NCBI GenBank assembly: GCA_964553225.1
Contig: CAZKJT010000002.1
Location: 389,908-453,907 of the forward strand
Source of the DNA: an uncultured Planctomycetales bacterium
GTDB taxonomy: Bacteria; Planctomycetota; Phycisphaerae; UBA1845; Fen-1342
Direction of reading: 5' to 3'
Length of the DNA stretch: 64,000 nt
A program made the position numbers and the translations under genes. Below, piece by piece: positions 25,679 to 48,078 of the stretch. The notes below the pieces were generated by a model that worked only from the letters and a program-made list of their open reading frames with translations, ran no database searches and had not been told where the DNA came from. How positions within the stretch are numbered: the first letter of the stretch is position 1; the number at the start of each line of letters is the position of its first letter.

Positions 25679-26254
25679 ATGACAACGCTCGCTCGTGTCG
25701 CGATTCGATTGGCCACGCCGGTCGATGCCCGAACGCTCGCCCCATTCGCCGAGAGAGTCTTCCGGGCGACATTCGAACGCGATCCGCATCACCGGCCGGA
25801 CGACATGGCGATCTACACGGCCGAGCATTTCTCCGTCGCGCGGATGGAGCGTGAGCTGTCCGACGAAGCGGCGCCGTATCTGCTGGCGGAGTTGGACGGC
25901 GCGCTATTGGGCTACGTGAAGCTCGGCGAAGATCCACCGCCGGCGTGCGTCCGCGCGCGGCGCGCGATGGAGCTGATCCGTCTCTACGTGGACCCGAGCG
26001 TGCACGGTCAGGGCGTAGCGCAGGCGCTGATGTCCGCGAGCATGCGCTACGCCGTCGAGCGCGGCTGCGACGTGATGTGGCTGGGTGTGTGGCGGAACAA
26101 CCACCGCGCACGGCGGTTCTACGAGAAATGCGGATTCCGCCACGTGGGCGAGCACCCGTTTCAATTCGGCAGCGCGCTTCAGGCGGATGAGGTGTACTTC
26201 CGCTCGGTCGATGAATTGTCCACCGGTGCTGTCGCGGGCGCGTCGGCGTCCTGA
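25679..26254 (+). CDS. GNAT-family N-acetyltransferase
   Basis: LIRLYVDPSVHGQGVAQALM...RFYEKCGFRHVG is the acetyl-CoA binding motif A/B. Start set at MTTLARV inside the track ORF. Confidence 0.8.
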   Translation: MTTLARVAIRLATPVDARTLAPFAERVFRATFERDPHHRPDDMAIYTAEHFSVARMERELSDEAAPYLLAELDGALLGYVKLGEDPPPACVRARRAMELIRLYVDPSVHGQGVAQALMSASMRYAVERGCDVMWLGVWRNNHRARRFYEKCGFRHVGEHPFQFGSALQADEVYFRSVDELSTGAVAGASAS

Positions 26255-28860
26255 TTGTCTGAATCGCGGCGCGGTTCGGGCGATTCGCTCAGCACGTTTC
26301 CGAGCGACACTTGTTGCGCGATCCGGTTCAATTGAGCGTCGGGGATGGACGGCGGCTGAGAAAGATCGGCTGCGGCCAGCGCCTCGGCCAGCTCTTCAAC
26401 GCTCGTCTCGCGTTCGGTGCGGGCGAGCAACAGCCGCGCAAGCTGATAGCGAAACAGGAACGAGCGAACGGTCCGCGGGCCGACGCGGCGGGCCGCGCCG
26501 TCGGGACCGGCGCCGTTCGGTCGTGGGGCATAGCCGGTCGCGTGGATCAACTGCTCGGTGACATTGCGCTCCTCGTCCGGTGAGAAGTGGATCGCGCGGT
26601 CGAACCGGACTCTGCGAGCGCGCCTCTTCCGCGCGGCTTCATCGGGACTGCCTGCTTCGACGGCGGAAGGTCGCGGTGTCGAGCCTGCAACCCGTTCCGC
26701 CGGCTCATCGCGCGGACGCGCGGCGGAGGCGCGAACCGGCGGTGGCGGCGTGGCTGCGCCGCCGGGCGACTGAGGCGCGTTTGATGCGGAGTTCGCGGGC
26801 TTCGATTCGTCGTCCGCGGTGGATTCGCGCAGGCGTTCAAAGAACCGCTTGGCGACGTCGCGCACGTCGCGCTCGCGGAGGCGAGGCAGCCGCAGGTACG
26901 CCACGAAAAGCTTTTCAACGTTTTCGATGAACAGTTGCCGCGAAGTTCGGTGGTCGCGGAGCGCGGCGTCTCCCCGGTCGCAATACTTCTGCAGGATGGC
27001 CGCGGCCAGCGAAGACTCATCGACCAGCATCGCGACTTGCAGGCGATCGCGAACGGCGGCGCTCTCCAGGAACTGCTTCAGGCCCTCCATGACTTCGAGC
27101 ATCGCCTCTGGCCGGCAGCGATCCAGATCGTCGACCACGAGAAGCACCCGTCGCGGCGGCGCCGGGAATAAGCGCGCCCGCCAGCCGGCCGCGCCCGGCA
27201 GCGCGGCGTACTTCGCGAGAAGCCAGAAGCCGGCGGTGAACGCGAGCCAGGTGATCGCGAGCAACACGCTGATGCCGAGAAACGCAGCGTCGGCGGACAG
27301 CGCGTTCTCCGGATTGGATGCCGGCACAGCAGGGAGTTCGACGCCAAGGGACGCAGCGTCGCCGGATAGCGCCCCGCTGAGCAGCGGCGATAGCGCAGCC
27401 GCTCCGAGCATGCTTGCGCCGAAGTAGCACACGGTGGCCAAGGGGCCAAAGGCGTGGCGGAGCGCACGTTCGGCCGCGGTTGCCGGAGTCCGTGTGGGTG
27501 GAGCCTTCGGCGGCGGTGGTCGCCAGCCGACAAGCAGCGCTTCGAGGTCACGGCCGATGACCGCTTGCAGTCCCAGCGGCTGATCGTGCCGGGCCATCGA
27601 CCAGAGGTACGAAAGCGGTGATTGCGCCAACGTGCGCCCGGCGCGGGCCACGCGCGATAGGTAGGTCAACCCCCCGATCCCGAGCACCGCTGCAAACGGT
27701 TTGGCCCACTGGGACCACAGCGAGACGGACGCCACACCTACCGCAAAGACGAGCAGAGCGCCGATTAGCGTCAGAATCCCGTGGCGCGCGATGCCGGCCC
27801 GAATAACGATCGGCAGAGAGGCCCGCGCGCCGCTGCGTGTGGCGCGTTCGGCGATCGTCTCGTAGAGGTGCGCCCAGAGCGTAGGCGTCTGCGGATAGGC
27901 CCAGGCGCTGAAGTTGACCACCGCGTATTCGCCTTCGGCCTCCAGTTCGCGGCGAACCTTGTTCATGAGGAACGTCTTGCCGCGTCCCCAATGACCCAGC
28001 AGTCCGAAGCAGAAGTCATCGCCGCCCCGGCGGAACAGGTGGGCGATCGCCTGCGCATACCGGTCGGCGTTGAGCGTGGACTCGTCCTCGCTTGCATCGC
28101 GTTCCCAGGTCTCGCGTCCGCCGACGACGCGCCCTGTCGGGGGCGTTGAGGATTCGCGCGGCTCGGTGGCGTTCGGCTTGACCGTGACGGGCGCCTCTGA
28201 GGAAGTCTGCGCTTTCATGCCGTCGGGCGCGTTCGCGCTCCCTCGCTTGGATTGCCGCAATCGCTCGGGCGTATCGGAAGTCGCGTCGCCAGGCGGCGCG
28301 CTGACATGGGCGGATCCGGTATCGAAAAATGCGTCGCGAATTCGGTACGCACTACGAGATTCGAGGACGTCGGCCGGGACGATTGTGATGTTGTTGTCGG
28401 TCAGATCGAGCATCGACAAGCGAGGAAGGCGCTCGATGACGGCGCGAGCGCCCGCGTCGCCAATTTGGTTGTTGCTCAGCGACAGAATCCGCAGCGCGGA
28501 CAGGCGCTGAGCGATCGCGATTGCGCCGTCGTCGTCGACTTCATCGCTGAGCAGTTTCAGCTCCGTCAACTTCGGCAAACGCTCCGCGATCTCACGCGCG
28601 CCCCGGCTGCCGATGTGATGTCCCGCGAGGGACAGCGATTCGAGCCTATCCAGCTCGAACAATTCGCCGGGCAGGCCTTCAAGGGAACCGTTAACGCGGA
28701 ACACGTGCGCCCGTTCGTTCTGTGAGATGTCGCGAGTCGAGCCGGCGTAGCGATCACTGACCAGCGCCAGCGCGGTCCACTTCTCCTCCCGTGCGCGGCG
28801 CACGACGTCAGGAATCGCGTCGCGGTGAACCACCTCAAATTGTTGTGCCATGTCTGACAT
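26179..28860 (-). CDS. KAP-family P-loop NTPase with N-terminal leucine-rich-repeat (RI-type) domain, TM helices inserted in the NTPase core, and a long disordered Ala/Pro/Arg-rich C-terminal tail
   Basis: LRR units (LESLSLAGHHIGSRGAREIAERLPKLTELKLL..LRILSLSNNQIGDAGARAVIERLPRLSMLDLTDNNIT). Walker A GLLGHWGRGKTFLMNKV (the GxWGxGKT form typical of KAP). At least two hydrophobic helices between Walker A and Walker B (GILTLIGALLVFAVGVASVSLW; FLGISVLLAITWLAFTAGFWLLA). Walker B VLLVVDDLDRC. Start at MSDMAQQ, 27 nt after the xylB stop. Confidence 0.8.
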   Translation of the reverse strand: MSDMAQQFEVVHRDAIPDVVRRAREEKWTALALVSDRYAGSTRDISQNERAHVFRVNGSLEGLPGELFELDRLESLSLAGHHIGSRGAREIAERLPKLTELKLLSDEVDDDGAIAIAQRLSALRILSLSNNQIGDAGARAVIERLPRLSMLDLTDNNITIVPADVLESRSAYRIRDAFFDTGSAHVSAPPGDATSDTPERLRQSKRGSANAPDGMKAQTSSEAPVTVKPNATEPRESSTPPTGRVVGGRETWERDASEDESTLNADRYAQAIAHLFRRGGDDFCFGLLGHWGRGKTFLMNKVRRELEAEGEYAVVNFSAWAYPQTPTLWAHLYETIAERATRSGARASLPIVIRAGIARHGILTLIGALLVFAVGVASVSLWSQWAKPFAAVLGIGGLTYLSRVARAGRTLAQSPLSYLWSMARHDQPLGLQAVIGRDLEALLVGWRPPPPKAPPTRTPATAAERALRHAFGPLATVCYFGASMLGAAALSPLLSGALSGDAASLGVELPAVPASNPENALSADAAFLGISVLLAITWLAFTAGFWLLAKYAALPGAAGWRARLFPAPPRRVLLVVDDLDRCRPEAMLEVMEGLKQFLESAAVRDRLQVAMLVDESSLAAAILQKYCDRGDAALRDHRTSRQLFIENVEKLFVAYLRLPRLRERDVRDVAKRFFERLRESTADDESKPANSASNAPQSPGGAATPPPPVRASAARPRDEPAERVAGSTPRPSAVEAGSPDEAARKRRARRVRFDRAIHFSPDEERNVTEQLIHATGYAPRPNGAGPDGAARRVGPRTVRSFLFRYQLARLLLARTERETSVEELAEALAAADLSQPPSIPDAQLNRIAQQVSLGNVLSESPEPRRDSDNQDADAPATAPVDNSSTERKYTSSA

Positions 28861-28886
28861 CGTACTCTGTCGCGACTTGTCGCGCG

Positions 28887-30410
28887 TCAACCCATACCCG
28901 CCAGCGCGTGCATTTCCTGACGAAGCGCTGGATAGAGCGCGCGATAGCGCGCGTAGAGTTCGGCGTATCGCTTCGCCGCGACGCCGGGTTCGGCGCCGGG
29001 GCGGACCTGATTCGCGGCGCGCTGCGCCGCGTCGGCCGGGCGAATCACGCCGACGCCGATGCCCGCCAGCAGCGCCGCGCCATAGGCCGCGCCGCCGGAT
29101 GCGACGACCGGCACGGCCGAGACGCCGAGAACGTCGGCCAGAATCTGAAGCCAAGCGCGGCTTTGCGCGCCTCCGCCGGAGACTCGCACGAGCGACGGCG
29201 CGTCGCCCGATGCGCGGATCAACTCCATGCAATCGCGCAGGCCGAACGCCACGCCTTCCATCACTGCGCGGGCCAGCTCGGCACGGCCGTGTCGCGTGTT
29301 CAACCCCACGAACGCCCCGCGCGCGAGCGGGTCAGCGTGCGGAGTGCGCTCGCCGGAAAGATAGGGCAGGAAGAGCAGCCCGCCCGCGCCGGGCGGCACG
29401 TGTGCGGCCTCCTCCGCGAGCGCGCCGGGTTCGACGCCGAGCGTCGAGCAAATCCAGTGGAAGCTGCCGCCGGCGGCCAGCATTACGCCCATGACGTGCC
29501 AACGGTCCGGCGCGGCGTGACAGAAGGCGTGCAGGCGGCCCAGCGGATCGGGCTTGAACGACGCAGTCGGCGCGAACACCACGCCCGACGTGCCCAGCGT
29601 GATCGACATCGAGCCGGGTTCGACGATCCCCATGCCGATCGCCTGTGCGGCCTGATCGCCCGCGCCGGCGACGACCGGCGTACCGACGGCGAGGCCGGTC
29701 TGGGCGGCGGCGTCCGCGCCGACGCGCGCGACGACCTGCGGCGACTCGGCCACGGCCGGCAGCCACGCGGGCGGCACGTCGAGCGCGGCCCGCATCTCAT
29801 CGCTCCAGGCGCGGCGGCCGACGTCGAACAGCGACGTGCCGGAGGCGTCGGACACGTCGATGGAGAACGCTCCGCTGAGCCGGTGGACGACATAATCCTT
29901 CGGCAAGAGGAAGTGGCGTACGCGGGCGAATATGCCCGGTTCATGCTCACGAACCCACTCGATCTTCGGCGCGGTGAAGCCGGTCAGCAGACGATTGCCG
30001 GTGAGCTGAATGACGCGTTCGAATCCGACGCGCTGCGTGATGCGCTCGCATTGCTCAGCGGTGCGCTGATCGTTCCAGAGGATCGCGGGTCGTAGCACGT
30101 CGCCGCGCTCATCCAGCAGCACCAGGCCGTGCATCTGCCCGGCTAGGCCGATCGCGCCGATTCGTGTGGCCGGTGCGGCGCCGGACGCGTGCGCGCCGGT
30201 GCTGTCATGGACGCTGCTGAGCGTCTTGCGGATGCACATGCGCGCCGCCGCCCACCAGTCGTGCGGGTCTTGCTCAGACCAGGTGGGGCGCGGCGCGCTG
30301 ACGGGATAGTGTTCGTCGGTTTCGGCGGCGATCGAGCCGGCGGCGTCGATGAGAACGCATTTGCAGGACGTGGTGCCGATATCGAGGCCGAGCAGCAGGG
30401 GCGCGGACAT
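28887..30410 (-). CDS. xylB: xylulokinase (FGGY carbohydrate kinase)
   Basis: LGLDIGTTSCKCVLID..., ...GAGDQAAQAIGMG..., ...VSGGGAQSRAWLQILADVLG... are FGGY N- and C-domain signatures closest to XylB. Confidence 0.85.
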   Translation of the reverse strand: MSAPLLLGLDIGTTSCKCVLIDAAGSIAAETDEHYPVSAPRPTWSEQDPHDWWAAARMCIRKTLSSVHDSTGAHASGAAPATRIGAIGLAGQMHGLVLLDERGDVLRPAILWNDQRTAEQCERITQRVGFERVIQLTGNRLLTGFTAPKIEWVREHEPGIFARVRHFLLPKDYVVHRLSGAFSIDVSDASGTSLFDVGRRAWSDEMRAALDVPPAWLPAVAESPQVVARVGADAAAQTGLAVGTPVVAGAGDQAAQAIGMGIVEPGSMSITLGTSGVVFAPTASFKPDPLGRLHAFCHAAPDRWHVMGVMLAAGGSFHWICSTLGVEPGALAEEAAHVPPGAGGLLFLPYLSGERTPHADPLARGAFVGLNTRHGRAELARAVMEGVAFGLRDCMELIRASGDAPSLVRVSGGGAQSRAWLQILADVLGVSAVPVVASGGAAYGAALLAGIGVGVIRPADAAQRAANQVRPGAEPGVAAKRYAELYARYRALYPALRQEMHALAGMG

Positions 30411-34432: not shown

Positions 34433-36715
34433 ATGAGGAACGAACATCGAACCGCGGTTCTGATGGCGTGTGCGCTGCTGGGCGGGAGCGCCCCCGCGCG
34501 TGCGCAGTTTCCGGAGCCGCCTTCCCGATCGGGCGACGCGCCCAAGCCGGGCCGGGCGTTTGAAGGCTACCGGCTTGAACGATTCGCGCTTGCCGCTGGA
34601 GCGGCGCACCTGTCGCGCCGCTGCCGCCCGGCGACGTACTTCGACGCGGTCGGCGATCGGTCCTACGTCTGCGGCGTCGAGGATGGCGCGATCGAAGCGT
34701 GGATCTGGCCGCTGCAGATGTTCGTCGAGGGGCGGCTGTCGTTTCGGCCGGCGGAATCGCTGGATTTCTTCGATCTGCATCGCTATGCCCACACGATCGA
34801 ATCTGCGCCGGATCGCACGGTGCTGCGATATCTGAGCGCTGAGATCGGCGTGGACGCGACGTTCGTCGCTCCGGACGGGCAGCCGGCGATCCTGATTCTG
34901 CTGGCGATCGACGTGGACAAGCCCGGCACGCTGGCGTTCTCGTTTGTGCCGAAACTTGCCCCGCAATGGCCGGCGTCGGTCGGCGGCGTCGCGGCGCAAT
35001 GGGATGAGAGCGCGGGGGCGTTCCGCATGTCCGAGCCGTCCGCGCGCCTGGCGGGCGTGGTCGGCTCGCCGCACGCCGTTCGCGGGACGCGCGGAATCCA
35101 GTATCTGCTGCCTGGCGCGCCGCTGCGAATGGAGATCGACGTTGAGCCGGAGCCGGGACGCGAGACATTTATCCCGCTCCTGTTCACCGCGGCGGAAGGC
35201 GCGCAGGCCCCCGCACAGGCGGACGCGCACTACCGACGAGTGGCGCGTGAGGCGCGCGCGATCGTCGAAACTCATCACGGCGCGTGGCAACGCGCGACGG
35301 AACAGATGACGCGCATCGCGACGCCGGATGCAGAGCTGGACCGCGCGTTTCTGCGCAACGCGATCTCGCTGCGGCAGTCGGTGGTACGGTCTGAAGCGCT
35401 CGGCGACGGACTGATCGCCGGCTATGGTCCGGCCGGACACACTTCGCAACGACCGGGGTTCGCGTGGTACTTCACCGGCGACGTGTCGATCAGCGCGGCG
35501 GCGTACCTCGCGGCCGGGCTGTTCGACGAGCTGGCGATCGGGCTTCGATTTGCCGCGCGGCATCAGCGCGCCGACGGGAAGATTCCGCACGAGGTGGTTC
35601 TTTCTGCACACTTATGCGACTGGTTCGACGCCTATCCGTTCGCATACATCCACGGCGACACGACCGGCCTGTGGATTCACGCATGCCGATCGCACTTCGA
35701 CGCCACCGGAGACCGGGCGCTGTTCGACGAGCTTTGGCCGGCGATCGTGCGCGGGTTCCGCTGGATCCTCGAGCAGGATGAGGACGGCGACGGTCTGCCG
35801 GACAACCCGCGGGCCGGGATGGGAGCGGCCGAGATCGGCGTGCTGTTGAATGACCTTCGGACGGACATACACCTCGCGGCGGTTTCTGCGGCTGCGCTTG
35901 CGGACGTGAGCGCGTTGGCCGCGCGTCGCGGCGAAAGCGCGTTGGCGGCGGAGGCCGGTCAGGCCGCGGAGCGCGCCGTGCGGCGCTTGAACGAGGCGTT
36001 CTGGGATGCGGAGGCGCGTTCGCTGGCGCACAGTCTTCGCACCGACGGCGATCTGTCGCGGGAACGTACGGCGTGGACGGTCATGCCGATCGTGCTGGGG
36101 CTGGTAAGTGGCGAGCGCGCGGACGCGACGCTGGACGTGATCGACGGTGACGCGATCACAACACCCTGGGGATGTCGCCTGCTGTCGCGAGAATCGGAGT
36201 CGTACAACCCGATGGGATACAACCAGGGCGCAGTCTGGCCTTTCATCACCGGGCTGGCGGCGTATGCCGACTTCGAGCGAGGGCGCGGCGACGCGGGATA
36301 TGCGAAAGTGCGTGCGGTCGCCGAGCTGACGTTCGCGGAAGCGCTGGGGCGAACTCCGGAGCTTCTGTCCGGGGCGCGCCCGCGGACGCTGGATGCGTCG
36401 GTGCCGAACCAGATGTTCTCGGCGATGGCGACCGTCGGTCCGGCAGTACGGGGGCTGCTCGGAGTGCGGCCGAGCGCGATGGACAATGTGCTCGAGCTGT
36501 CGCCGTGCTTCCCGGCGGGCTGGGAGGAGGCGCGGCTGGACAATCTGCGGTTCGGCCAGCGCCGGCTGGACGTGAGGATTCGGCGCGAAGGCGAAACGTA
36601 TCACGTGGATTACGCGTTGCGATCACACGACGGCGCGCCGCTGCCGCGAATCGAGCTTCGGCCGCGCAACGGCGTCGTGGGGCGTGTAGAAGCGCGCGTC
36701 GAGGCGGGCGAGTGA
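34433..36715 (+). CDS. secreted six-hairpin (alpha/alpha)6 glycoside-hydrolase-like protein (amylo-alpha-1,6-glucosidase / GDE_C-like)
   Basis: Signal peptide MRNEHRTAVLMACALLGGSAPARAQ. The C-terminal region has ...AGYGPAGHTSQRPGFAWYFTGDVSISAAAYL... and ...NPMGYNQGAVWPFITG..., characteristic of GDE_C/GH-like six-hairpin domains. Confidence 0.6.
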   Translation: MRNEHRTAVLMACALLGGSAPARAQFPEPPSRSGDAPKPGRAFEGYRLERFALAAGAAHLSRRCRPATYFDAVGDRSYVCGVEDGAIEAWIWPLQMFVEGRLSFRPAESLDFFDLHRYAHTIESAPDRTVLRYLSAEIGVDATFVAPDGQPAILILLAIDVDKPGTLAFSFVPKLAPQWPASVGGVAAQWDESAGAFRMSEPSARLAGVVGSPHAVRGTRGIQYLLPGAPLRMEIDVEPEPGRETFIPLLFTAAEGAQAPAQADAHYRRVAREARAIVETHHGAWQRATEQMTRIATPDAELDRAFLRNAISLRQSVVRSEALGDGLIAGYGPAGHTSQRPGFAWYFTGDVSISAAAYLAAGLFDELAIGLRFAARHQRADGKIPHEVVLSAHLCDWFDAYPFAYIHGDTTGLWIHACRSHFDATGDRALFDELWPAIVRGFRWILEQDEDGDGLPDNPRAGMGAAEIGVLLNDLRTDIHLAAVSAAALADVSALAARRGESALAAEAGQAAERAVRRLNEAFWDAEARSLAHSLRTDGDLSRERTAWTVMPIVLGLVSGERADATLDVIDGDAITTPWGCRLLSRESESYNPMGYNQGAVWPFITGLAAYADFERGRGDAGYAKVRAVAELTFAEALGRTPELLSGARPRTLDASVPNQMFSAMATVGPAVRGLLGVRPSAMDNVLELSPCFPAGWEEARLDNLRFGQRRLDVRIRREGETYHVDYALRSHDGAPLPRIELRPRNGVVGRVEARVEAGE

Positions 36716-36761
36716 GTCGCGCCGGGCGACCAAACGGACCGCGCGCGGACTGAGAGAGCGA

Positions 36762-37454
36762 TCACCTGGCGGGCGCGGCGTAGACCTCGACTTCGGTGTA
36801 GTGGTTCTGCTCGTCCTCGGTGTTGCCCTTGCTGTAGAGCCGCACGTAGCGCGCGGTTTCGCCCTTGGCGTCGAACAGACGGCCTTCGTACGTCTCCCAA
36901 TACTCCTTGTCGGACCCGATGCCCATCGCTGACGAGTTGTCGTGGTCGGAGTTGTAGAGCGTGCGGACGTTCTGAATGAAATCGGCGTCGTCGGCTACCT
37001 GCACGACCACGTCCTTGTACACGCGCGCATTGTGGTGATAGTGCCAGGCGACGATGGCGAAGATCGCGTGCGGCTTGCCGAGGTCGATCTGCACCCACTG
37101 CGTTCCGGGGCCCAGCTCGACGTAGCGGCCTTCCTTGGCCTCTTTGTCGCCGTCGGTCACCAACTTCAGCTCGCCGATGATCGGCTCCATGTCGCTGCTG
37201 GTCACCGGCGCCTTCAGCGCCACATTCGTCGTCCCCTTCGGCGCCAGGAACGGCGGGCGCGGGCCTTTGCGCGGCTCCTCCAGGTTCAGGCCCGGCGGGG
37301 CGTTCTTGGGAGTGCCCTTGAACGCCGGCTTCGGCAGCTTCAGCGGAATCTCCTCGAGATCGCCGTCGCCCGCCAGCGCCGCAGGCGCGAACAGGCCCAA
37401 ACCGAACACGAGCGCCGCGCTGCCCGCAAAAATCATCGTGAAGCTACGCCGCAT
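36762..37454 (-). CDS. secreted discoidin (F5/8 type C, galactose-binding-like) domain protein
   Basis: Signal peptide MRRSFTMIFAGSAALVFGLGLFAPAALA. The core ...GTQWVQIDLGKPHAIFAIVAWHYHH... is typical of an F5/8-C beta-sandwich. Last gene of the cytochrome operon. Confidence 0.65.
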   Translation of the reverse strand: MRRSFTMIFAGSAALVFGLGLFAPAALAGDGDLEEIPLKLPKPAFKGTPKNAPPGLNLEEPRKGPRPPFLAPKGTTNVALKAPVTSSDMEPIIGELKLVTDGDKEAKEGRYVELGPGTQWVQIDLGKPHAIFAIVAWHYHHNARVYKDVVVQVADDADFIQNVRTLYNSDHDNSSAMGIGSDKEYWETYEGRLFDAKGETARYVRLYSKGNTEDEQNHYTEVEVYAAPAR

Positions 37455-37887
37455 GTTTCCCGACTCCTCCGCGCGGCCGCCGGGCCGCGAACCATACGTA
37501 CGCCGCGCCGCTGGCAAGCAGTCCCACGCCGCTGCGTTCGTGCCATTCCATCAACTGATGCTGACCACTATACGCGAATAGCGGCGCGGCTGCCGCGACG
37601 AATGTGGCGGAAACGCCACCCGCGCACGCGACGGCGAGCCAGAAGCACGTCTTCCGCGCCACGCCGAGCGCGCCGCAGCCGCCGCAACGCTCGGAATCGA
37701 ATCGATGCGCTCGCCCCCACATCAGAGCGGCCGCAGCAAATCCGGCCAGCACAAGCGGCGCGAACAGCAGGTGAATCACGAGCGCCCAGCCTGTGACGGC
37801 GCCGCGGAGCCAGTTCGATCCCAGCCCGGTCGTCGCCGATCCGACCACGCCAGCCACGCACGTCAACAGGATGACCGCGCGCATCAT
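37444..37887 (-). CDS. small 4-TM membrane protein (possible cytochrome b-like / membrane anchor subunit)
   Basis: 147 aa with four hydrophobic helices and conserved-looking His (H in VIHLLFAPL, HRF, HQLMEWH). The start overlaps the cytochrome stop by 4 nt and the end overlaps the discoidin start by 11 nt. Confidence 0.5.
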   Translation of the reverse strand: MMRAVILLTCVAGVVGSATTGLGSNWLRGAVTGWALVIHLLFAPLVLAGFAAAALMWGRAHRFDSERCGGCGALGVARKTCFWLAVACAGGVSATFVAAAAPLFAYSGQHQLMEWHERSGVGLLASGAAYVWFAARRPRGGVGKHAA

Positions 37888-39755
37888 GCGTCTCCCCCGC
37901 GACGACGCGCGCCATAGCCGGCCAGGCCGTGACGCAGCAGCGCGAGAAGCATGAGACCCGCGCAAAGCAGCGCGGCGAGCTTAAACGCCTCGCGCAGCGG
38001 GAAGCCCGCGTTGAGCGCCTTCACGCGCGCCCGATCGTCGCCGCGGAGCGCCGCCATGTCCCACGTGATGGGGCTGGGCGATTCGCCGATCGGTCCGGGC
38101 GAGAGCTTTCCGAAGTAGATCGACGCGTCATCGGCATGGCAATCTGTGCAGCCGCGAATACCGAGCGATTGGCCGGCCGGGCGAACGTCGTGAGCGATCG
38201 GCCACAGGTAGGGCGGCAGCGCGTCCTGACCCGGCTGCATCTTGCCCGCGGCGTCGAAGCTGTGGACCAGCCCGTCGCGCAGGTAGACGAGCTGGCCGCC
38301 GTCGGGCACGTCGGTCGCGAGCTTGACTGCGATCTGTTCGAGCTGCGCGGCGTCCGGCAGGGCGCCCGCGGGCCCGTCGCCTGTCGGCGCGGCGCGACGC
38401 ACGCGGTCGAGCGGAACGGGGCGCATCTCGCCGCCGCCATGCCTGATCGCCCAGTAGGCCGGAAAGACGGCACGATGCGGCGCGATCTCGCCGCGTTCGT
38501 TTCTGGCGAAGACTGGCGCGAGAATCTGCGGCGGGTCGTCCTGGCTTCTCTCACGAGTGGGAAGGCCCAGGCCGTGATTCATCGCGGTCTGAATCTCGCG
38601 CGTGTGCGGCTGCGGCCAGGGGCCGCTGTGACAGGCCGTGCAGGTGAGCTTCTCGAAATGCACAAGCGGAATGCCGCGGTGTTCGGGGTAAGGCGCGCCG
38701 AGGCGACCCGCGGCATGGTCGCGTCCGGCGATCAGATCGGCTTCGCCCAGGTGGCAGCCGCGACAACTGAGCGTGGCGGCGTCCGGCGATTTCTCAAGCG
38801 CCGGGTCGCCGGGATAGCCGCGCGTGATGCCGTGGTCGATCCCGTTGCGATGGCAATCCGTGCAGAGCAGGCCGGCCGAGAGGTGCACATCCTGGTCGGT
38901 GGTCCAGCGCGGCGCGGCCGACTCGCCGACGATCCGCTCCGCGTGGCAGAACGTGCAGCGTTCGAGTGGAGCGCGGAGCGTGAGGTCGAAGAGCACGCGA
39001 TCGTCGGCGTCGAAACGTCGCAGGTCATACTGGACGCGCGGCGCCGTGCGGTCGGGATAGTCCGGGTTGGGCGGGGCGAGCGGATCGAAGTCATCCGGCA
39101 GGCGCTTGGCGTCGCCCCGAATGGTGGCCAGACCGGCGGTCACAGTCGCCGACCAGCGGAAATTCTCACGCTCGATCTGGCGGCTCAGCTCGGCCGGATC
39201 GTGCTGGAGCGAGGCCGCGTGGCAAAACAGGCAATCGACTTCGACCGTTCCGGAAATGCCCCAGCGAAGCGATTCGTCGGACGCGTCGATGTCGGCCGGG
39301 TCGGGGGCGCCGAAGCCGCCGCCGGGCGAGTGCGCGCCGAAGCGCGTGAGCAGTTCCCAATCGGACACGCCGACGTCGGCCGGGGCGAACGCGCCAGGCC
39401 ATTGCCGCTTGGACAAGGGCAATTGCGTGCCGCTGCGCTCATCCGTGTAGATCCACGGTTCGCCCGCGCGCCCGTCGGCGACGCCTTCGCGTCCGGCGTT
39501 GAAGTGCCAGCCGCTGTGCACCTGGCCGTAGGCGTGGCATTTTCCGCAGGTGCGCGCGGTCGAGAAAGGCGGCGCGTCGGGATCGCGCGGGTCGATGGCG
39601 ACGCCGTCGGCGTCGTAGAGCGTGATGCGATGGACATAGGGCGCGGGCGAGTCGGTGCGCAGGGTCTCGGCGGCGGGTTCCTCGGCGAGGGCGGGGAGCG
39701 TGAGCGCCGGCAAAACCGCAAAAATTGGCATCCGCCACGAGCGCGGGACATTCAT
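37884..39755 (-). CDS. heptaheme c-type cytochrome with C-terminal membrane anchor
   Basis: Signal peptide. Seven CxxCH sites (CGKCH, CLFCH, CTFCH, CTDCH, CRGCH, CTACH, CTDCH) and a C-terminal hydrophobic helix LAALLCAGLMLLALL. Starts 17 nt after the Gfo/Idh/MocA stop. Confidence 0.85.
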   Translation of the reverse strand: MNVPRSWRMPIFAVLPALTLPALAEEPAAETLRTDSPAPYVHRITLYDADGVAIDPRDPDAPPFSTARTCGKCHAYGQVHSGWHFNAGREGVADGRAGEPWIYTDERSGTQLPLSKRQWPGAFAPADVGVSDWELLTRFGAHSPGGGFGAPDPADIDASDESLRWGISGTVEVDCLFCHAASLQHDPAELSRQIERENFRWSATVTAGLATIRGDAKRLPDDFDPLAPPNPDYPDRTAPRVQYDLRRFDADDRVLFDLTLRAPLERCTFCHAERIVGESAAPRWTTDQDVHLSAGLLCTDCHRNGIDHGITRGYPGDPALEKSPDAATLSCRGCHLGEADLIAGRDHAAGRLGAPYPEHRGIPLVHFEKLTCTACHSGPWPQPHTREIQTAMNHGLGLPTRERSQDDPPQILAPVFARNERGEIAPHRAVFPAYWAIRHGGGEMRPVPLDRVRRAAPTGDGPAGALPDAAQLEQIAVKLATDVPDGGQLVYLRDGLVHSFDAAGKMQPGQDALPPYLWPIAHDVRPAGQSLGIRGCTDCHADDASIYFGKLSPGPIGESPSPITWDMAALRGDDRARVKALNAGFPLREAFKLAALLCAGLMLLALLRHGLAGYGARRRGGDA

Positions 39756-39771
39756 CGGCTGAGTCTCGCGC

Positions 39772-41145
39772 TCAAACCTCGAACTCGCCCGGTTCAAAAT
39801 TCACGCGGCAGCCCTTCTCCACCGCGTCGTTCGCCTTCAGCACGGATGCGGCCGTCTCGTAGCCGACGTCCGGCGGGCAGCTCAGCGGCGTTCCGGCGCG
39901 GATGGCGTTGAAGAAGTTCTCGAGGTGGAGCTGATGCACGTCCTTCTTGCTCTCCTCCAGAAGGCGCTGGCCTTCCGGGGCCTTCGAGCCGTCCGGCGCG
40001 AGCGTTTCGCCGAGCTTGAGCGTGATGGCCTCGCGGTCGAGCTTTTCGATCTTCTCCGACTCGTCCTCCCATTCGCGGCGCTTGGCTTCCTGCTCGCGGA
40101 AGAACTCGCCGCGGCGGCTGTCCTCGGAGATGACCATCGAGCCTTCGTCGCCCATGAAGCACTCGTAGAACCCACCGTGGCTGGTGGTGTTCAGCACCTG
40201 GTAGAACGCCCGCACCGGCCCGCTGTCCGTCGCATATTCGAAGATCGAGAGCACGTTGTCGTACCAGTCGCGGCTCTTCTGCTCGGTGTAGTAGTCCAGC
40301 CCGCCGCTGGCGATCACCGATTTCGGACGCGCCTTCAGAACCCAGTTGAACACGTCCACCTGGTGGCTGCCGAGATCGGCCATCGGCCCGCCGGAATACT
40401 TCCGGTACCAGCGCCAGTTGCGGAACTGCTCCATGGATTCGTAGCCGTAGCGCTTCAGCGTGTCGGCATCGAGCACCTGGTTCTCCGGCCAGCCGATCTC
40501 GTACAGCCGTGGACGGTTCCACTGCCCCTGGCAATGCGTGATGCGCCCGAGCACCTTGTCGTTCTCGATCAGCTTCTTGGCGTGCCAGTAGCGCGGATTG
40601 CTGCGCCGCTGATGCCCGATCTGGAGCAGCTTTCCGGTCTCGCGGGCTGCCAGCACCATCTGCTTCGCGCCGTCGAGCGTGTTCGACATCTCCTTCTCGC
40701 AATACACGTGCTTGCCGGCCTTCAGGCACGCGACGGTGTGCTCGGCGTGCACCCAGTCCGGCGTCGCGACGATCACCGCGTCGAGGTTCCGCTCCTTCTC
40801 GAGCATCTCGCGGTAATCTTCGTAGACGTTCACGATCTGGTCGTATTTCTTCAGAATGTTCGCGGCGTATTTCTGGTGATAGGCCCAGACGTCGCAGACG
40901 GCGACGAAGCGAATTCCCGCGATCTTCAGGCAGTTGTTCAGCAGGTTCCGGCCCTGGCTGCCCGGTCCGATGATCGCGATCGCCAGCTCGGGCGGATTGT
41001 CGCCCGTCTTCTCGGCCGCTTCCTGTGCCCAGGCCTGCGGCCCGGCGAGCCACATGCCGGCCGAAGTGACGGCCGCGGTCTGCACAAAATGGCGACGGGT
41101 TACGTCGCTTCCGGGTTTCGTTGGTGCGCCAGGGTTCATGAGCAT
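39772..41145 (-). CDS. TAT-secreted Gfo/Idh/MocA-family NAD(P)-dependent oxidoreductase
   Basis: Twin-arginine signal TRRHFVQTAAVTSAGMWLA. Rossmann motif IAIIGPGSQGRN, ...EKEM..., and a GFO_IDH_MocA C-terminal domain. Confidence 0.9.
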   Translation of the reverse strand: MLMNPGAPTKPGSDVTRRHFVQTAAVTSAGMWLAGPQAWAQEAAEKTGDNPPELAIAIIGPGSQGRNLLNNCLKIAGIRFVAVCDVWAYHQKYAANILKKYDQIVNVYEDYREMLEKERNLDAVIVATPDWVHAEHTVACLKAGKHVYCEKEMSNTLDGAKQMVLAARETGKLLQIGHQRRSNPRYWHAKKLIENDKVLGRITHCQGQWNRPRLYEIGWPENQVLDADTLKRYGYESMEQFRNWRWYRKYSGGPMADLGSHQVDVFNWVLKARPKSVIASGGLDYYTEQKSRDWYDNVLSIFEYATDSGPVRAFYQVLNTTSHGGFYECFMGDEGSMVISEDSRRGEFFREQEAKRREWEDESEKIEKLDREAITLKLGETLAPDGSKAPEGQRLLEESKKDVHQLHLENFFNAIRAGTPLSCPPDVGYETAASVLKANDAVEKGCRVNFEPGEFEV

Positions 41146-41535
41146 CCTCGGGCGAAGTTCGGGGCCGAACCGGTCCGCAAGTCGTTCTGGGTCCGCGGCA
41201 CACGGCCGTCGCGGGCGGCGAATTCGCCACGCGGGCGGTGGCTCGTCAACGAACCACGAATCGACGATCCTCTGTCGAACTGCTACAGGGGCGATCGGCT
41301 CCCACGTGTGTACGTTACAGATTGCGCGGCGCGATCGTCAATCGACGGGCGGCAGGCGGGACGCGAACCAGCCGGCGGATTGTCGCCGTGGCGGCGGCGT
41401 GCGCCGGTTCGGCTCGGTGCGAGGGGAAGTCGCGCTTCGGAAAGGGGTCGCACAAGCAGCCGGCGCGAGGGCCTTGATTCCGTCGCGCTTGCGTTTTACG
41501 CTTGTCCTTTCGGTCCGCGAGGCGATCTTCGCGCC

Positions 41536-41607
41536 GCCGATGTAGCTCAACGGTAGAGCACCGCTTTCGTAAAGCGGGGGTTGAGGGTTCAAATCCCTCC
41601 ATCGGCT
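41536..41607 (+). tRNA. tRNA-Thr (anticodon CGT)
   Basis: Manual cloverleaf: acceptor GCCGATG/CATCGGC, D-arm GCTC-AACGGTA-GAGC, anticodon stem CCGCT/AGCGG with loop TTCGTAA (CGT), variable GGGTT, T-arm GAGGG-TTCAAAT-CCCTC, discriminator T. 72 nt, no encoded CCA. Confidence 0.85.
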
Positions 41608-41608
41608 T

Positions 41609-42121
41609 TCATGTTTCCGCTTTCTGCCCGCCGGTCCGCACCCAGCCGATGTCCGTGCCGTCATGCAGCCGCAAGCGCCCCGAAAGAAGGGCCGCGTGGT
41701 GCTGGATGTGCCGGATGGAGTGGAGCTGGTGCTCCAGCTTCGGCATCGTGGCGTGCCACGGAAAGCCTGCGCCGGCCGCGTCGAGGTCCAGGCGATCAAC
41801 GCAGGCATCGACCATGCGGTCGCAGAGCGTCCAGTAGCTCAGCAGGTCGTCGCGCGTGTACGGATCGGCGATCGGCTGGGCGCTCTCGGGCGGGTAGGGC
41901 AGGTCGTGATGCTCGCCGCGGTGGCGCTCCCACGGCGTGAAGTCCTCGAGCCGCCGCTGAAGATAGAGGTGCGTGAAGTAGAGTGTGTGGTACGCGACGC
42001 GCCAATACGGCGTCGCGTGCGGGCCGTCGTTCCAGAGCAAGTCCGGGCATTGCTCGATCGTCCGCCGCAGCGTCTCCAGTGCCGCGTGATACTGACCTTT
42101 CAGCGCCGTTCGAATGTCCAT
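41609..42121 (-). CDS. DinB/YfiT-like (DinB_2 superfamily) four-helix-bundle metalloenzyme family protein
   Basis: About 170 aa with conserved His pattern (…HTLYFTHLYL…, …HQLHSIRHIQHH…) typical of DinB_2/DUF664. The stop is 1 nt from the tRNA 3' end. Confidence 0.65.
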   Translation of the reverse strand: MDIRTALKGQYHAALETLRRTIEQCPDLLWNDGPHATPYWRVAYHTLYFTHLYLQRRLEDFTPWERHRGEHHDLPYPPESAQPIADPYTRDDLLSYWTLCDRMVDACVDRLDLDAAGAGFPWHATMPKLEHQLHSIRHIQHHAALLSGRLRLHDGTDIGWVRTGGQKAET

Positions 42122-46124: not shown

Positions 46125-47816
46125 TCACGGCGCGCGAGTGATTCGAAAGACCCGGACCTCGCGCGTATTCGGTGATGTCGGCGGCGGCGGGCCGCCCAGC
46201 CATTGCGCCCACTCGTCCGCGCGCGTCCTGGGACAGGCGTGGCGCTCGACCCGCGCGATCTGCACCGGTTCCCCCAGCAAGTCCACGCGAATAGACGCAG
46301 CGGCGTCGTCGGACGGCGACGTCGCGAGCCAATCCCGGAGCGGGCCGTGCAGCGCGCGGTCCATCGCGGACGGTTTCTGGATGGACTCAAGCCGATCCCA
46401 TGGCGCGATTTCGGCATAATCGAGTCCGCCCTTGTTCAGCAATTCCCGCAGACGCTGCGGACTCACGCGCGACGAGGCCATCACGCGATCCGGAAGGCCG
46501 TCGACGTAGATTGCGGTCAGGTGCCGCGCGATCGTGCTGGAAAGAGCGAGCGGCACGTCCCGAGCGGCGTGAATAGCGCTCTGCGCCGTGCGGACAATGT
46601 CCGCTCGATAGAGCTTGCCGGCGCCGCGGTTCGTCTGGCGCTGTTCGAGCACCCAGTACACCGCCACGCCCGCAATCGCCGCGACCGCGATGGGCCTCCC
46701 CACGCGCGACCGCGCCGCGGCGCCGCGCAGCGCGGTCACCAGCGCGGCGCTGCCCATCAACAGGATCAGCGGCACGACCGGCGTGAAGTAGCGCGCTTGC
46801 AGGCTGGGCGGCACGTAGGCCGACAGGCTCATCGATCCGAACGTGTGGTACGCGAAGTACCAGCCGACCAGCAGCAGCGGGAGCGGGCGGCCGCGAACCA
46901 GCGCCGCATAGGCCGCGGCCGATGCCAGCCCCAGCACGCGATCGCGCGGCGACCAGTAGGGCGGACCCAGGTTGTACCACAAGTGCCACAGGCGCTCGTG
47001 CGGCCAGAAACCGTACGGCCACGTTCGCGTCGGGCTGACGATCGACTCATCCACGACCCAGGCTGCGCGCGTATAGGCCCGGCCGGTCAGCGCGCTGAGC
47101 GCGATCCACTCGCCCGCGAACACGATGACAAACCCGAGCAGCAGCGCCATCCACCCGGCGGCGACGCCCGCGATGCCGCGTCGCCGCGCGATGCACAGCC
47201 AGGCGGCCGCGAAGAACGGCCCCAGGATGAGCGAAGTCTCCTTCGCCAGGTAACCGAGCCCGACCAGCGCCCCGCACGCCACCAGCAGCGCCAGCGCGGT
47301 GCGGCTTGCGTCCTTTGCGTGCCGCCGGCTTGCCTCGTCGATCGCGAGCACAGCGCCCAGCAGGCAGCATGCCAGTGGGGTGTCCGGCAGAATGGCCGTT
47401 CCGGCGAGCACGAGGGCCGGGAAGAGCGCGACGGCCCACGCGGTCAACACCGCCGTCGCGCGATCGAACCAGCGCCGCGCGAGCAGGGCGACGAGCGCGA
47501 TGGTCAACAGGTGGAAGCAGACGTGCGTGGCGGCGATGCGGTCCGCGTCATAGCCGGCGGCCCACGCCACGGCGGCATTCCAGCCGACCATGAGCAGGCG
47601 GTTCTGGCCGAGGGTGGGCTCTTCGGGCAGCGAACCCTGCGTCACGATCTGCCGCGCGGCGGACAGGTACTCCATGTCGTCGCTGGCGTAATGTCCGGTG
47701 AAGAAAAAGAGATCGTTCAGCAGCGCGAGAAGCAGGATCGCAGCCAATGCGGCGCGGGCGGCGGCGGGCGGTATGTCCCAGGGCGGCGCGGACGCGGTCG
47801 GCTGCGGCGCGGCCAT
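46125..47816 (-). CDS. membrane glycosyltransferase, GT39/GT83-like (PMT/ArnT-type dolichyl- or undecaprenyl-phosphate-sugar transferase)
   Basis: Polytopic membrane N-terminal half with an early acidic DDxxY-type motif (ASDDMEYLSAARQI) and a soluble C-terminal domain, the architecture of PMT_2/ArnT-like transferases. Start at MAAPQP (47816). Confidence 0.6.
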   Translation of the reverse strand: MAAPQPTASAPPWDIPPAAARAALAAILLLALLNDLFFFTGHYASDDMEYLSAARQIVTQGSLPEEPTLGQNRLLMVGWNAAVAWAAGYDADRIAATHVCFHLLTIALVALLARRWFDRATAVLTAWAVALFPALVLAGTAILPDTPLACCLLGAVLAIDEASRRHAKDASRTALALLVACGALVGLGYLAKETSLILGPFFAAAWLCIARRRGIAGVAAGWMALLLGFVIVFAGEWIALSALTGRAYTRAAWVVDESIVSPTRTWPYGFWPHERLWHLWYNLGPPYWSPRDRVLGLASAAAYAALVRGRPLPLLLVGWYFAYHTFGSMSLSAYVPPSLQARYFTPVVPLILLMGSAALVTALRGAAARSRVGRPIAVAAIAGVAVYWVLEQRQTNRGAGKLYRADIVRTAQSAIHAARDVPLALSSTIARHLTAIYVDGLPDRVMASSRVSPQRLRELLNKGGLDYAEIAPWDRLESIQKPSAMDRALHGPLRDWLATSPSDDAAASIRVDLLGEPVQIARVERHACPRTRADEWAQWLGGPPPPTSPNTREVRVFRITRAP

Positions 47817-48078
47817 GGCGCTCCCGTGAGGCTCGGGACATCCCCCGTGGGCCGCGCGCAGGCCGATCAGTCGCGCGCGGTTCGAGGTCGAAGGGATACG
47901 GTAGCGTCGCGTTGCGGCGGCCGCTATCGCGCGGAGCGAGGAAGGGCATCGGGCGGTTCGGGGGACGCTTCCGCCCGGCCCGAGCGCCGGTGCGCCTGGT
48001 TCGGCGCACCGGCGAGGCGCCATGGCTCCCCCGGGCGTCGTGAGCGGTGTGCAGCTGGCTCGGCAGGGTTGCGCGTCG

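Follow-up and report, generated by a model that had tools for sequence, protein, structure and literature searches.

In this study we analysed four genes lying head to tail on the minus strand of a 64,000-nt stretch of DNA (hereafter the window; contig CAZKJT010000002.1 of assembly GCA_964553225.1, positions 389,908 to 453,907) from an uncultured Planctomycetales bacterium. They encode a Gfo/Idh/MocA-type oxidoreductase, a heptaheme cytochrome c, a four-helix membrane protein and a discoidin-domain protein, referred to below as GFO, CYT, TM4 and DISC, respectively (Table 1). An earlier note, made from the bare sequence, had described them as a tight periplasmic redox operon, and the four open reading frames (ORFs), read directly from the sequence, lie exactly where that note placed them; an independent gene caller has predicted the same four genes on this DNA in public assemblies. 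Of the distances given in the note, the 4-nt overlap of CYT and TM4 (ATGA) and the 11-nt overlap of TM4 and DISC are correct, whereas the gap between GFO and CYT is 16 nt and not 17 nt. As argued below, it is rather probable that the products form a membrane-attached periplasmic complex, in which GFO would oxidise a sugar-type alcohol and deliver the electrons into the respiratory chain.

Table 1. Positions of the four-gene operon, its predicted functional elements and other features mentioned in the text (window numbering, unless a related locus is named)
Feature	Position	Strand	Details
GFO, Gfo/Idh/MocA oxidoreductase	41145..39772	(-)	457 aa; 455 aa from second ATG at 41139
GFO twin-arginine (TAT) signal peptide	41026..41103	(-)	residues 15-40, VTRRHFVQTAAVTSAGMWLAGPQAWA
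CYT, heptaheme cytochrome c	39755..37884	(-)	623 aa
CYT C-terminal transmembrane helix	37911..37985	(-)	residues 591-615
TM4, four-helix membrane protein	37887..37444	(-)	147 aa
TM4 heme ligand candidates	H39 37771-37773; H116 37540-37542	(-)	Y130 37498-37500 at third His site
DISC, CBM32/discoidin protein	37454..36762	(-)	230 aa
Convergent glycoside hydrolase (GH), MGH1-like GH with GH65 C-terminal domain	34433-36715	(+)	760 aa
tRNA-Thr	41536-41607	(+)	
PMT_2-domain membrane protein	46125-48023	(-)	632 aa
FGGY sugar kinase	28887-30410		
ORF with leucine-rich repeats and KAP-family P-loop NTPase domain	26179-29232	(-)	1017 aa
c18 genes of related loci	L032:3306-5374; L040:568-4711; L046:899-1867; L062:3262-5355; L070:3485-5500		

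GFO, which we propose to be the catalytic, sugar-oxidising subunit, contains three Pfam domains that place it in the Gfo/Idh/MocA family (N-terminal PF01408, 71.7 bits against a cutoff of 24; C-terminal PF22725, 48.7 bits, and PF02894, 40.8 bits). The twin-arginine (TAT) export claimed for it in the earlier note is borne out by the motif RRHFVQ at residues 17-22, where the NCBIfam model TIGR01409 scores 16.7 bits, exactly its cutoff; R17, R18 and F20 are invariant among 30 orthologues, and 55 of 58 orthologue sequences have a motif of the RRxF type. Equally invariant in the set of 30 are G60, G62, Q64 and G65 of the dinucleotide-binding motif GPGSQG (residues 60-65), D85, E150, the motif QxGxQRRS, and H261, which is part of the segment ADLGSHQVD that aligns with the active-site segment of DgpA. 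The latter, a C-glycoside 3-dehydrogenase, is one of the nearest solved relatives of GFO, the others being inositol dehydrogenases, GFOR (PDB 1h6a and other structures, matching at E ~1e-20) and glycoside 3-dehydrogenases of the AL3/BT2158 type (8tdf/8tdh). From the TAT signal, the Rossmann motif and the precedents of GFOR and BT2158 we infer that GFO holds its NAD(P) tightly.

These relatives, together with the 3-keto-glycoside lyase genes found in 38 related loci (see below), support the sugar-type substrate that the earlier note had suggested, and the neighbouring genes of the 3-keto pathway suggest more specifically glycosides or glucose/3-ketoglucose. GFO was rejected as a member of the BT_2158 family of glycoside 3-dehydrogenases (NF058561, 100.1 bits against a cutoff of 750, residues 16-279 only). 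In 10 related loci BT2158-type paralogues are encoded beside GFO, and these match the same model over their full length with 458-534 bits, on which ground the CYT-linked enzymes are a separate subfamily. GFO is ~30% identical to one of these paralogues; its CYT-linked orthologues share 38-84% identity with it, as against 23-32% for co-resident paralogues. Where both types occur together, one might speculate that the CYT-linked enzyme regenerates a keto-sugar hydride acceptor.

CYT contains exactly seven CXXCH motifs (at residues 70, 175, 267, 298, 331, 372 and 536), all of them invariant among 24 homologues, as are seven further histidines (H84, H291, H308, H359, H366, H394 and H522). Because of these additional residues every c-heme could be bis-His ligated, and since they would suffice for all seven hemes, the pattern suggests that CYT is an electron wire and not a catalyst. 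The protein starts with a Sec-type signal and ends in a hydrophobic helix followed by the basic tail ARRRGGDA; a C-terminal hydrophobic segment is shared by all 24 homologues of the alignment, in agreement with the membrane-anchored seven-heme cytochrome described previously. No Pfam or NCBIfam family matched CYT at its cutoff, and searches against the PDB produced short local matches around the heme motifs only. Candidate identities that had to be rejected are NrfA (a local match only, E=8.5e-5 over ~57 residues), octaheme tetrathionate reductase (TIGR04315, 21 bits against a cutoff of 375), ExtN (a weak NCBIfam match in the range of 18-21 bits, far below the cutoff), and MtrC/MtrF and cytochrome c7 (weak Pfam matches, below the cutoff or marginal). 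CXXCK, the motif by which catalytic multiheme reductases may be recognised, is absent, all motifs being CXXCH. In a profile search of 1.84 billion representatives the relatives of CYT formed a discrete family of 484 clusters at 50% identity (E<1e-30), and it is this large group of unannotated multiheme cytochromes that now gains a likely role in sugar oxidation.

The small membrane protein TM4, described in the earlier note as a His-bearing protein with four transmembrane segments, has five histidines, of which two, H39 and H116, are invariant in alignments of 29 and 54 sequences, whereas the other three are not conserved; the mean column identity of the family is as low as 31%. Its profile matches FdnI (1kqf_C) over the whole length (E=2.1e-5, positions 8-143), the invariant H39 and H116 pairing with H57 and H155, respectively. 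In FdnI these last two residues bind the periplasmic heme (bP), while H18 and H169 bind the cytoplasmic heme, H169 also being in contact with quinone. H18 has no equivalent in the TM4 family, and the site of H169 is occupied by His in 65% of the relatives and by Tyr130 in the window, so the four-histidine, two-heme arrangement of FdnI is reduced to the equivalents of H57 and H155. Since the bP ligands alone are conserved, the TM4 family probably binds a single heme, at the periplasmic side, which makes a transmembrane redox loop through this protein doubtful. On the Pfam model PF01292 (Ni_hydr_CYTB) the window TM4 gave no match, and one homologue scored 27.3 bits (cutoff 30.1), as well as 24.4 bits on the model of the formate dehydrogenase gamma subunit; we therefore regard TM4 as a remote homologue of the FdnI/HyaC cytochromes b, below formal Ni_hydr_CYTB membership, and propose it as the quinone-reducing membrane subunit.

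A close relationship between the two cytochromes is evident from gene fusions: of 260 proteins of the CYT family, 83 end in a full-length TM4 domain (E down to 3e-43; e.g. P0265, P0070 and P0242, or L091:8801-11113 and L092:8519-10579), in which the TM4 part directly follows the CYT C-terminal helix within one polypeptide. The window, with its ATGA overlap, represents the split form. Such fusions are direct evidence, at the level of protein sequence, of joint action by the two cytochromes.

DISC matches the Pfam domain F5_F8_type_C_2 (PF22633, 33.6 bits against a cutoff of 27.8), and its AlphaFold2 (AF2) model (pLDDT 82.5) has CBM32 and F-lectin modules as top Foldseek matches (E ~1e-8, target TM-scores of 0.7-0.8), consistent with a beta-sandwich fold like that of galactose-binding domains. 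The discoidin domain proposed previously is thereby confirmed, whereas a clear membrane anchor is not: the protein has a cleavable signal peptide instead, and several relatives have a lipobox. None of the other three proteins is as well conserved (alignment A3, 41-74% identity to relatives; alignment A4, 63-80%; CYT for comparison, 43-62%), and the loop residues WHxH, DxDNS and NHY are invariant. The domain is preceded by a strongly conserved Pro-rich segment, LPKPxFxGTPxN...PRPPFLAP (LPKPAFKGTP... in the window). Residues 38-75, LPKPAFKGTPKNAPPGLNLEEPRKGPRPPFLAP, are as conserved as the domain itself, with L40, P41, P43, F45, G47, T48 and P49 invariant in 31 sequences. As such conservation is unusual for a linker, it suggests a protein-protein contact or a modification site; the FxGTP motif was sought in other proteins, where nothing recurrent was found. 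DISC is possibly an accessory periplasmic partner, serving in glycan binding, substrate capture or docking.

A pattern scan with one genome per species detected CYT relatives in at least 569 species genomes, all of them metagenome-assembled genomes (MAGs). To judge from record titles, these include Planctomycetota/Phycisphaerae, Sumerlaeia, Omnitrophota, KSB1, Calditrichota, Kiritimatiellota, Bacteroidota and Acidobacteriota. For the analysis of gene neighbourhoods 80 loci from about eight phyla were fetched. Upstream of CYT, 60 of the 69 loci with sufficient flanking sequence have a GFO orthologue in the same orientation, at a distance of no more than 400 nt in 53; a multi-span ORF follows CYT in 53 of 79 loci, and DISC is found downstream in 46 of 64 testable ones. 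The earlier note had pointed to co-occurrence across genomes as a check on the operon, and the gene order is kept across phyla; moreover, CYT belongs to no nitrite or hydroxylamine reductase family and the histidine ligands of TM4 are conserved, on both of which that note had made its proposal depend. The four-gene set is not a chance neighbourhood. Sampling from the GFO side showed that two of four orthologues adjoin a CYT-TM4 fusion, followed by DISC, a PMT-like gene and ApbE, and one Phycisphaerae clade has the arrangement TGT-YajC-CYT-TM4-DISC, without GFO. The linkage between GFO and CYT is thus frequent, not obligatory. In public annotations the products are named 'Gfo/Idh/MocA family oxidoreductase', 'hypothetical protein' and 'discoidin domain-containing protein'.

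When all ORFs of the 80 loci were clustered, the commonest arrangement proved to be longer than that of the window, namely (TIM-barrel/DUF1080)-GFO-CYT-TM4-DISC-Agl23-like-ApbE (36 loci, 25 with the first gene). In the product of the first gene a TIM barrel resembling xylose isomerase is fused to a 3-keto-disaccharide hydrolase domain (DUF1080), the two being recognised with 155 and 74 bits; the gene adjoins GFO in 38 of 79 related loci. The Agl23-like gene encodes a GT-C-type membrane protein (TIGR03663, 182 bits), and ApbE is a FAD:protein FMN transferase (141.6 bits) encoded in 44 of 79 related loci. In most relatives the Agl23/PMT-like gene and ApbE come after DISC, often with 4-nt overlaps (e.g. 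L060:10327-12677, L087:11213-13939, L092:11443-14477). The Agl23-like protein possibly glycosylates the Pro-rich segment of DISC, and the frequent presence of ApbE points to a covalently bound FMN. Homologues of ApbE, Agl23/PMT-like, ThuA and TIM/DUF1080 proteins were all missing from the 64-kb window, that of ApbE even at E values up to 10. Since the Agl23-like and ApbE genes are absent, the window operon is a trimmed, four-gene version. About 5 kb upstream of it lies a gene for a PMT_2-domain membrane protein, which was rejected as an orthologue of the Agl23-like gene (BLASTP E=0.53), and the place held by the Agl23-like and ApbE genes of relatives is occupied in the window by the convergent glycoside hydrolase gene.

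Loci of the Omnitrophota type are organised as c18-c18-GFO-CYT-TM4-ApbE and lack DISC. The c18 genes, present in one to four copies ahead of these operons, encode TAT-signal proteins of ~320 aa without a match in Pfam or NCBIfam (the only similarity, at E ~0.2, is to the strand-loop at the C-terminus of IMPDH-type TIM barrels), which could be cofactor-binding partners. Some loci additionally encode MFS or NCS1 transporters, a signal-less Gfo-type enzyme or ThuA domains. Among the ThuA-domain genes near the operon (L092:14587-15362; L087:3573-4493) one is fused to a 3-keto-disaccharide hydrolase domain, and these neighbours connect the operon also with the 3-keto-disaccharide route of the ThuAB type. 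L087, the locus most closely related to the window operon (63% CYT identity), has both the Agl23/PMT-like gene and ApbE. A two-gene cassette of an AAA_21 ATPase and a DUF4276 protein (L087:6170-8004) has been inserted there between GFO and CYT, at a junction which is elsewhere conserved; it resembles a defence pair of the OLD/abortive-infection type.

Taken together, these features can be arranged into a tentative sequence of events. GFO would fold in the cytoplasm around its tightly held NAD(P) before being exported by the TAT pathway, and in the periplasm it would oxidise a secondary hydroxyl group of a sugar, glycoside or cyclitol, most likely to a keto-sugar, a product suggested by the nearest relatives and by the 3-keto-glycoside lyase genes which elsewhere accompany the operon. 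The reduced cofactor would be re-oxidised by the hemes of CYT, and not by a second sugar. CYT would be tethered to the membrane by its C-terminal helix, and this helix may pack against TM4 (or, in many species, be fused to it), which in turn would reduce membrane quinone via its periplasmic-side heme, with DISC as an accessory glycan-binding or docking subunit in the periplasm. The free NAD(P)-type cofactor has a potential of ~-320 mV and quinols lie at ~-75 to +100 mV; because the donor is so far below quinone, electrons should pass from GFO to quinone. The transfer of a hydride, i.e. of two electrons, to one-electron carriers normally needs a flavin, and one is probably required between NAD(P)H and the hemes of CYT, in keeping with the occurrence of ApbE in most relatives, though not in the window. 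A bolder proposal, which we put forward only tentatively and hold to be distinctly less likely, is that of an unrecognised class of respiratory enzyme: a permanently NAD(P)-bound TAT dehydrogenase, re-oxidised by a dedicated heptaheme cytochrome c and a cytochrome b, either via a flavin attached by ApbE in a non-canonical manner (e.g. to the invariant Thr of the FxGTP motif of DISC) or by direct transfer from NAD(P)H to heme. With such an enzyme, widespread uncultured Planctomycetota, Omnitrophota, Calditrichota and others would gain energy from oxidising glycosides in the periplasm.

Several observations weigh against sugar oxidation coupled to quinone reduction. Some of them concern the flavin: the 64-kb window contains neither ApbE nor any other flavoprotein gene, and the canonical flavinylation motif [S/T]GA[S/T] is found in no conserved protein of the cluster. 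Scans for [ST]G[AS][ST] over the conserved ORF clusters, and for [ST]GA[ST] over the three forward frames (operon strand) of the 80 loci, revealed no recurrent flavinylation site in GFO, CYT, TM4, DISC or the recurrent neighbours, and direct NAD(P)H-to-heme transfer would be chemically awkward. TM4 offers ligands for one heme only, and the window protein has no histidine at the site of H169, the quinone contact of FdnI. With 100 bits against the required 750, GFO falls outside the BT2158 family, which leaves its substrate unassigned by family, and its role may differ in those loci that also hold a true BT2158-type enzyme. The linkage itself is imperfect, as two of the four sampled GFO orthologues stand alone and nine CYT loci with enough flanking sequence have no upstream GFO. 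Since the AF2 model of CYT is poor (pLDDT 53, pTM 0.51, from an alignment of 24 sequences), it permitted neither a check of the heme-ligand geometry nor a fold search. Finally, all relatives are MAGs.

The best of the competing explanations, although an unlikely one, is that the electrons have a different sink: CYT would still be reduced by GFO, but instead of going to quinone the electrons would be passed on to soluble periplasmic cytochromes, to a terminal oxidase (or reductase) or to an acceptor outside the cell, with TM4 acting mainly as an anchor or as a donor on the quinol side. The single-heme ligand set of TM4, without an H18 equivalent and with Tyr in place of H169 in the window, fits this scheme, as do the weak similarities which Pfam reports between CYT and the MtrC/MtrF domains or cytochrome c7, and there are known glucoside 3-dehydrogenases that depend on cytochrome c (LacABC and ThuAB, cited in PMC8121099). 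However, the Pfam matches are below the cutoff or marginal, the conserved genes of the operon include neither a porin of the outer membrane nor a second cytochrome, and CYT is membrane-tethered and in a third of the family fused to cytochrome b, which recalls the quinone-coupled formate dehydrogenase-N.

A little less likely still is a redox-neutral cycle, in which GFO recycles its NAD(P) with a second sugar and CYT and TM4 are merely co-transcribed for some other periplasmic function. This is the sole mechanism demonstrated experimentally for TAT-exported Gfo-type enzymes, and in some genomes the GFO orthologue or the CYT-TM4-DISC set is encoded separately. Nevertheless, the two genes are adjacent in 53 of 69 loci from about eight phyla, with overlapping or near-abutting frames; the CYT-linked GFO proteins constitute a subfamily of their own, clearly set apart from the co-resident paralogues by the identity values given above; and no alternative electron donor is conserved beside CYT. 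Improbable is also a flow in the opposite direction, from quinol through cytochromes b and c to GFO, the latter acting as a periplasmic keto-sugar reductase, e.g. for detoxifying or recycling 3-keto sugars: enzymes producing such sugars are indeed encoded nearby in relatives and Gfo-type enzymes do reduce 3-ketoglucose, but quinol would, by the established potentials, be poorly suited to reduce a cofactor of the NAD(P) type, and no energy-coupling module is present. It is highly improbable that GFO feeds CYT as a catalytic reductase of the type acting on nitrite, hydroxylamine, tetrathionate or metalloids, for its short NrfA match and its weak hits to the octaheme tetrathionate reductase and ExtN models (18-21 bits) lie far below the family cutoffs and cover heme-motif segments only, and, besides the lack of CXXCK, the extra histidines would suffice to fill every distal position and leave no obvious heme with open coordination.

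The respiratory complex proposed here belongs to a known kind, in which a periplasmic dehydrogenase feeds membrane cytochromes; what is new is the catalytic family, the cytochrome family and the accessory genes. Its layout most resembles that of formate dehydrogenase-N (FdnGHI), in which the catalytic subunit is likewise exported by the TAT pathway, the electron-transfer subunit is anchored through a single helix at its C-terminus, and the cytochrome b spans the membrane four times. The catalytic subunit is here an NAD-type dehydrogenase instead of a molybdoenzyme, seven c-hemes stand where the iron-sulfur subunit with its four [4Fe-4S] clusters would be, and TM4 has one heme site in place of the two of FdnI.

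With regard to the catalytic subunit, the closest parallel is provided by the TAT-exported Gfo-type glycoside 3-dehydrogenases of Bacteroides and Alistipes, which hold their NAD tightly and without exchange and stall when reduced; recycling by 3-ketoglucose has been proposed for this pathway, and either a keto-sugar co-substrate or unidentified 'cytochromes' have been suggested to re-oxidise the cofactor (Liu et al. 2021, PMC8121099; Nasseri et al., bioRxiv 10.1101/2024.03.25.586180). The TIM-barrel and DUF1080 enzyme types act after the dehydrogenase in that pathway, as 3-keto-glycoside 1,2-lyases and hydratase (bioRxiv 10.1101/2024.03.25.586180). The window operon shares with the BT2156-BT2159/AL1-AL4 systems a TAT-exported Gfo/Idh/MocA enzyme acting on periplasmic sugars and, as we suppose, tightly bound NAD; related loci carry the same partner enzymes, in fused form, and 10 of them also a BT2158-type paralogue. 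Cytochromes are absent from the Bacteroides pathway, which is redox-neutral, whereas the window has CYT and TM4 and no lyase genes. GFOR of Zymomonas mobilis, a member of the same family, also has a TAT signal and is exported with its cofactor bound (PMC8121099), but it is a soluble enzyme that recycles NADP by reducing fructose and has no redox partner proteins. LacABC and ThuAB, like the complex envisaged here, convert periplasmic glycosides to 3-keto-glycosides and pass the electrons to cytochrome c (PMC8121099); LacA, in contrast, is a FAD flavoprotein of the GMC family, and the cytochrome subunit that goes with it is small, with one or two hemes, in place of a membrane-tethered heptaheme protein linked to a cytochrome b.

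A further comparison is with the ApbE-dependent extracytosolic systems (Meheust et al. 2021, PMC8238504; Huang et al. 2024, PMC11334425), with which 44 of 79 loci have in common ApbE and a small cytochrome b with two central conserved histidines; TM4 resembles in this respect the flavinylation-associated DUF4405, MsrQ-like and PepSY-like cytochromes (PMC8238504; PMC11334425). They differ from the present operon in that the latter has no subunit with [S/T]GA[S/T] and, in the window, no ApbE. The surveys of ApbE-associated clusters make no mention of this gene cluster (PMC8238504; PMC11334425), and the literature searched contains no description of an operon combining Gfo/Idh/MocA with a multiheme cytochrome, which agrees with the statement of the earlier note that the combination is not a named system.

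Periplasmic, NAD-tight Gfo/Idh/MocA enzymes are abundant in Planctomycetota, Bacteroidota and related phyla, where they start the 3-keto route of glycan breakdown. The operon offers a concrete and widely conserved candidate for the cytochrome partner that would re-oxidise the trapped cofactor in a compartment without an NAD pool, and as the same four parts can be cloned from hundreds of genomes, the question is directly testable. If the proposed scheme is correct, sugar oxidation at the cell surface would be coupled to respiration by an NAD-type enzyme. It would also give a function to 'hypothetical' multiheme cytochromes that might otherwise be read as metal-reduction genes in MAGs.

As concerns the surroundings of the operon, its upstream border in the window is a tRNA-Thr gene on the opposite strand, the sole match of an Rfam scan. 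At the other end the stop codon of the convergent glycoside hydrolase gene lies 46 nt away from that of DISC. A scan of positions 36500-41700 for consensus promoters and terminators yielded nothing above shuffled expectation; the G+C content is 65-70% throughout, with no compositional break. Beyond the glycoside hydrolase gene an FGGY sugar kinase is encoded, and this part of the window also contains a long ORF for a protein that has leucine-rich repeats as well as a P-loop NTPase domain of the KAP family.

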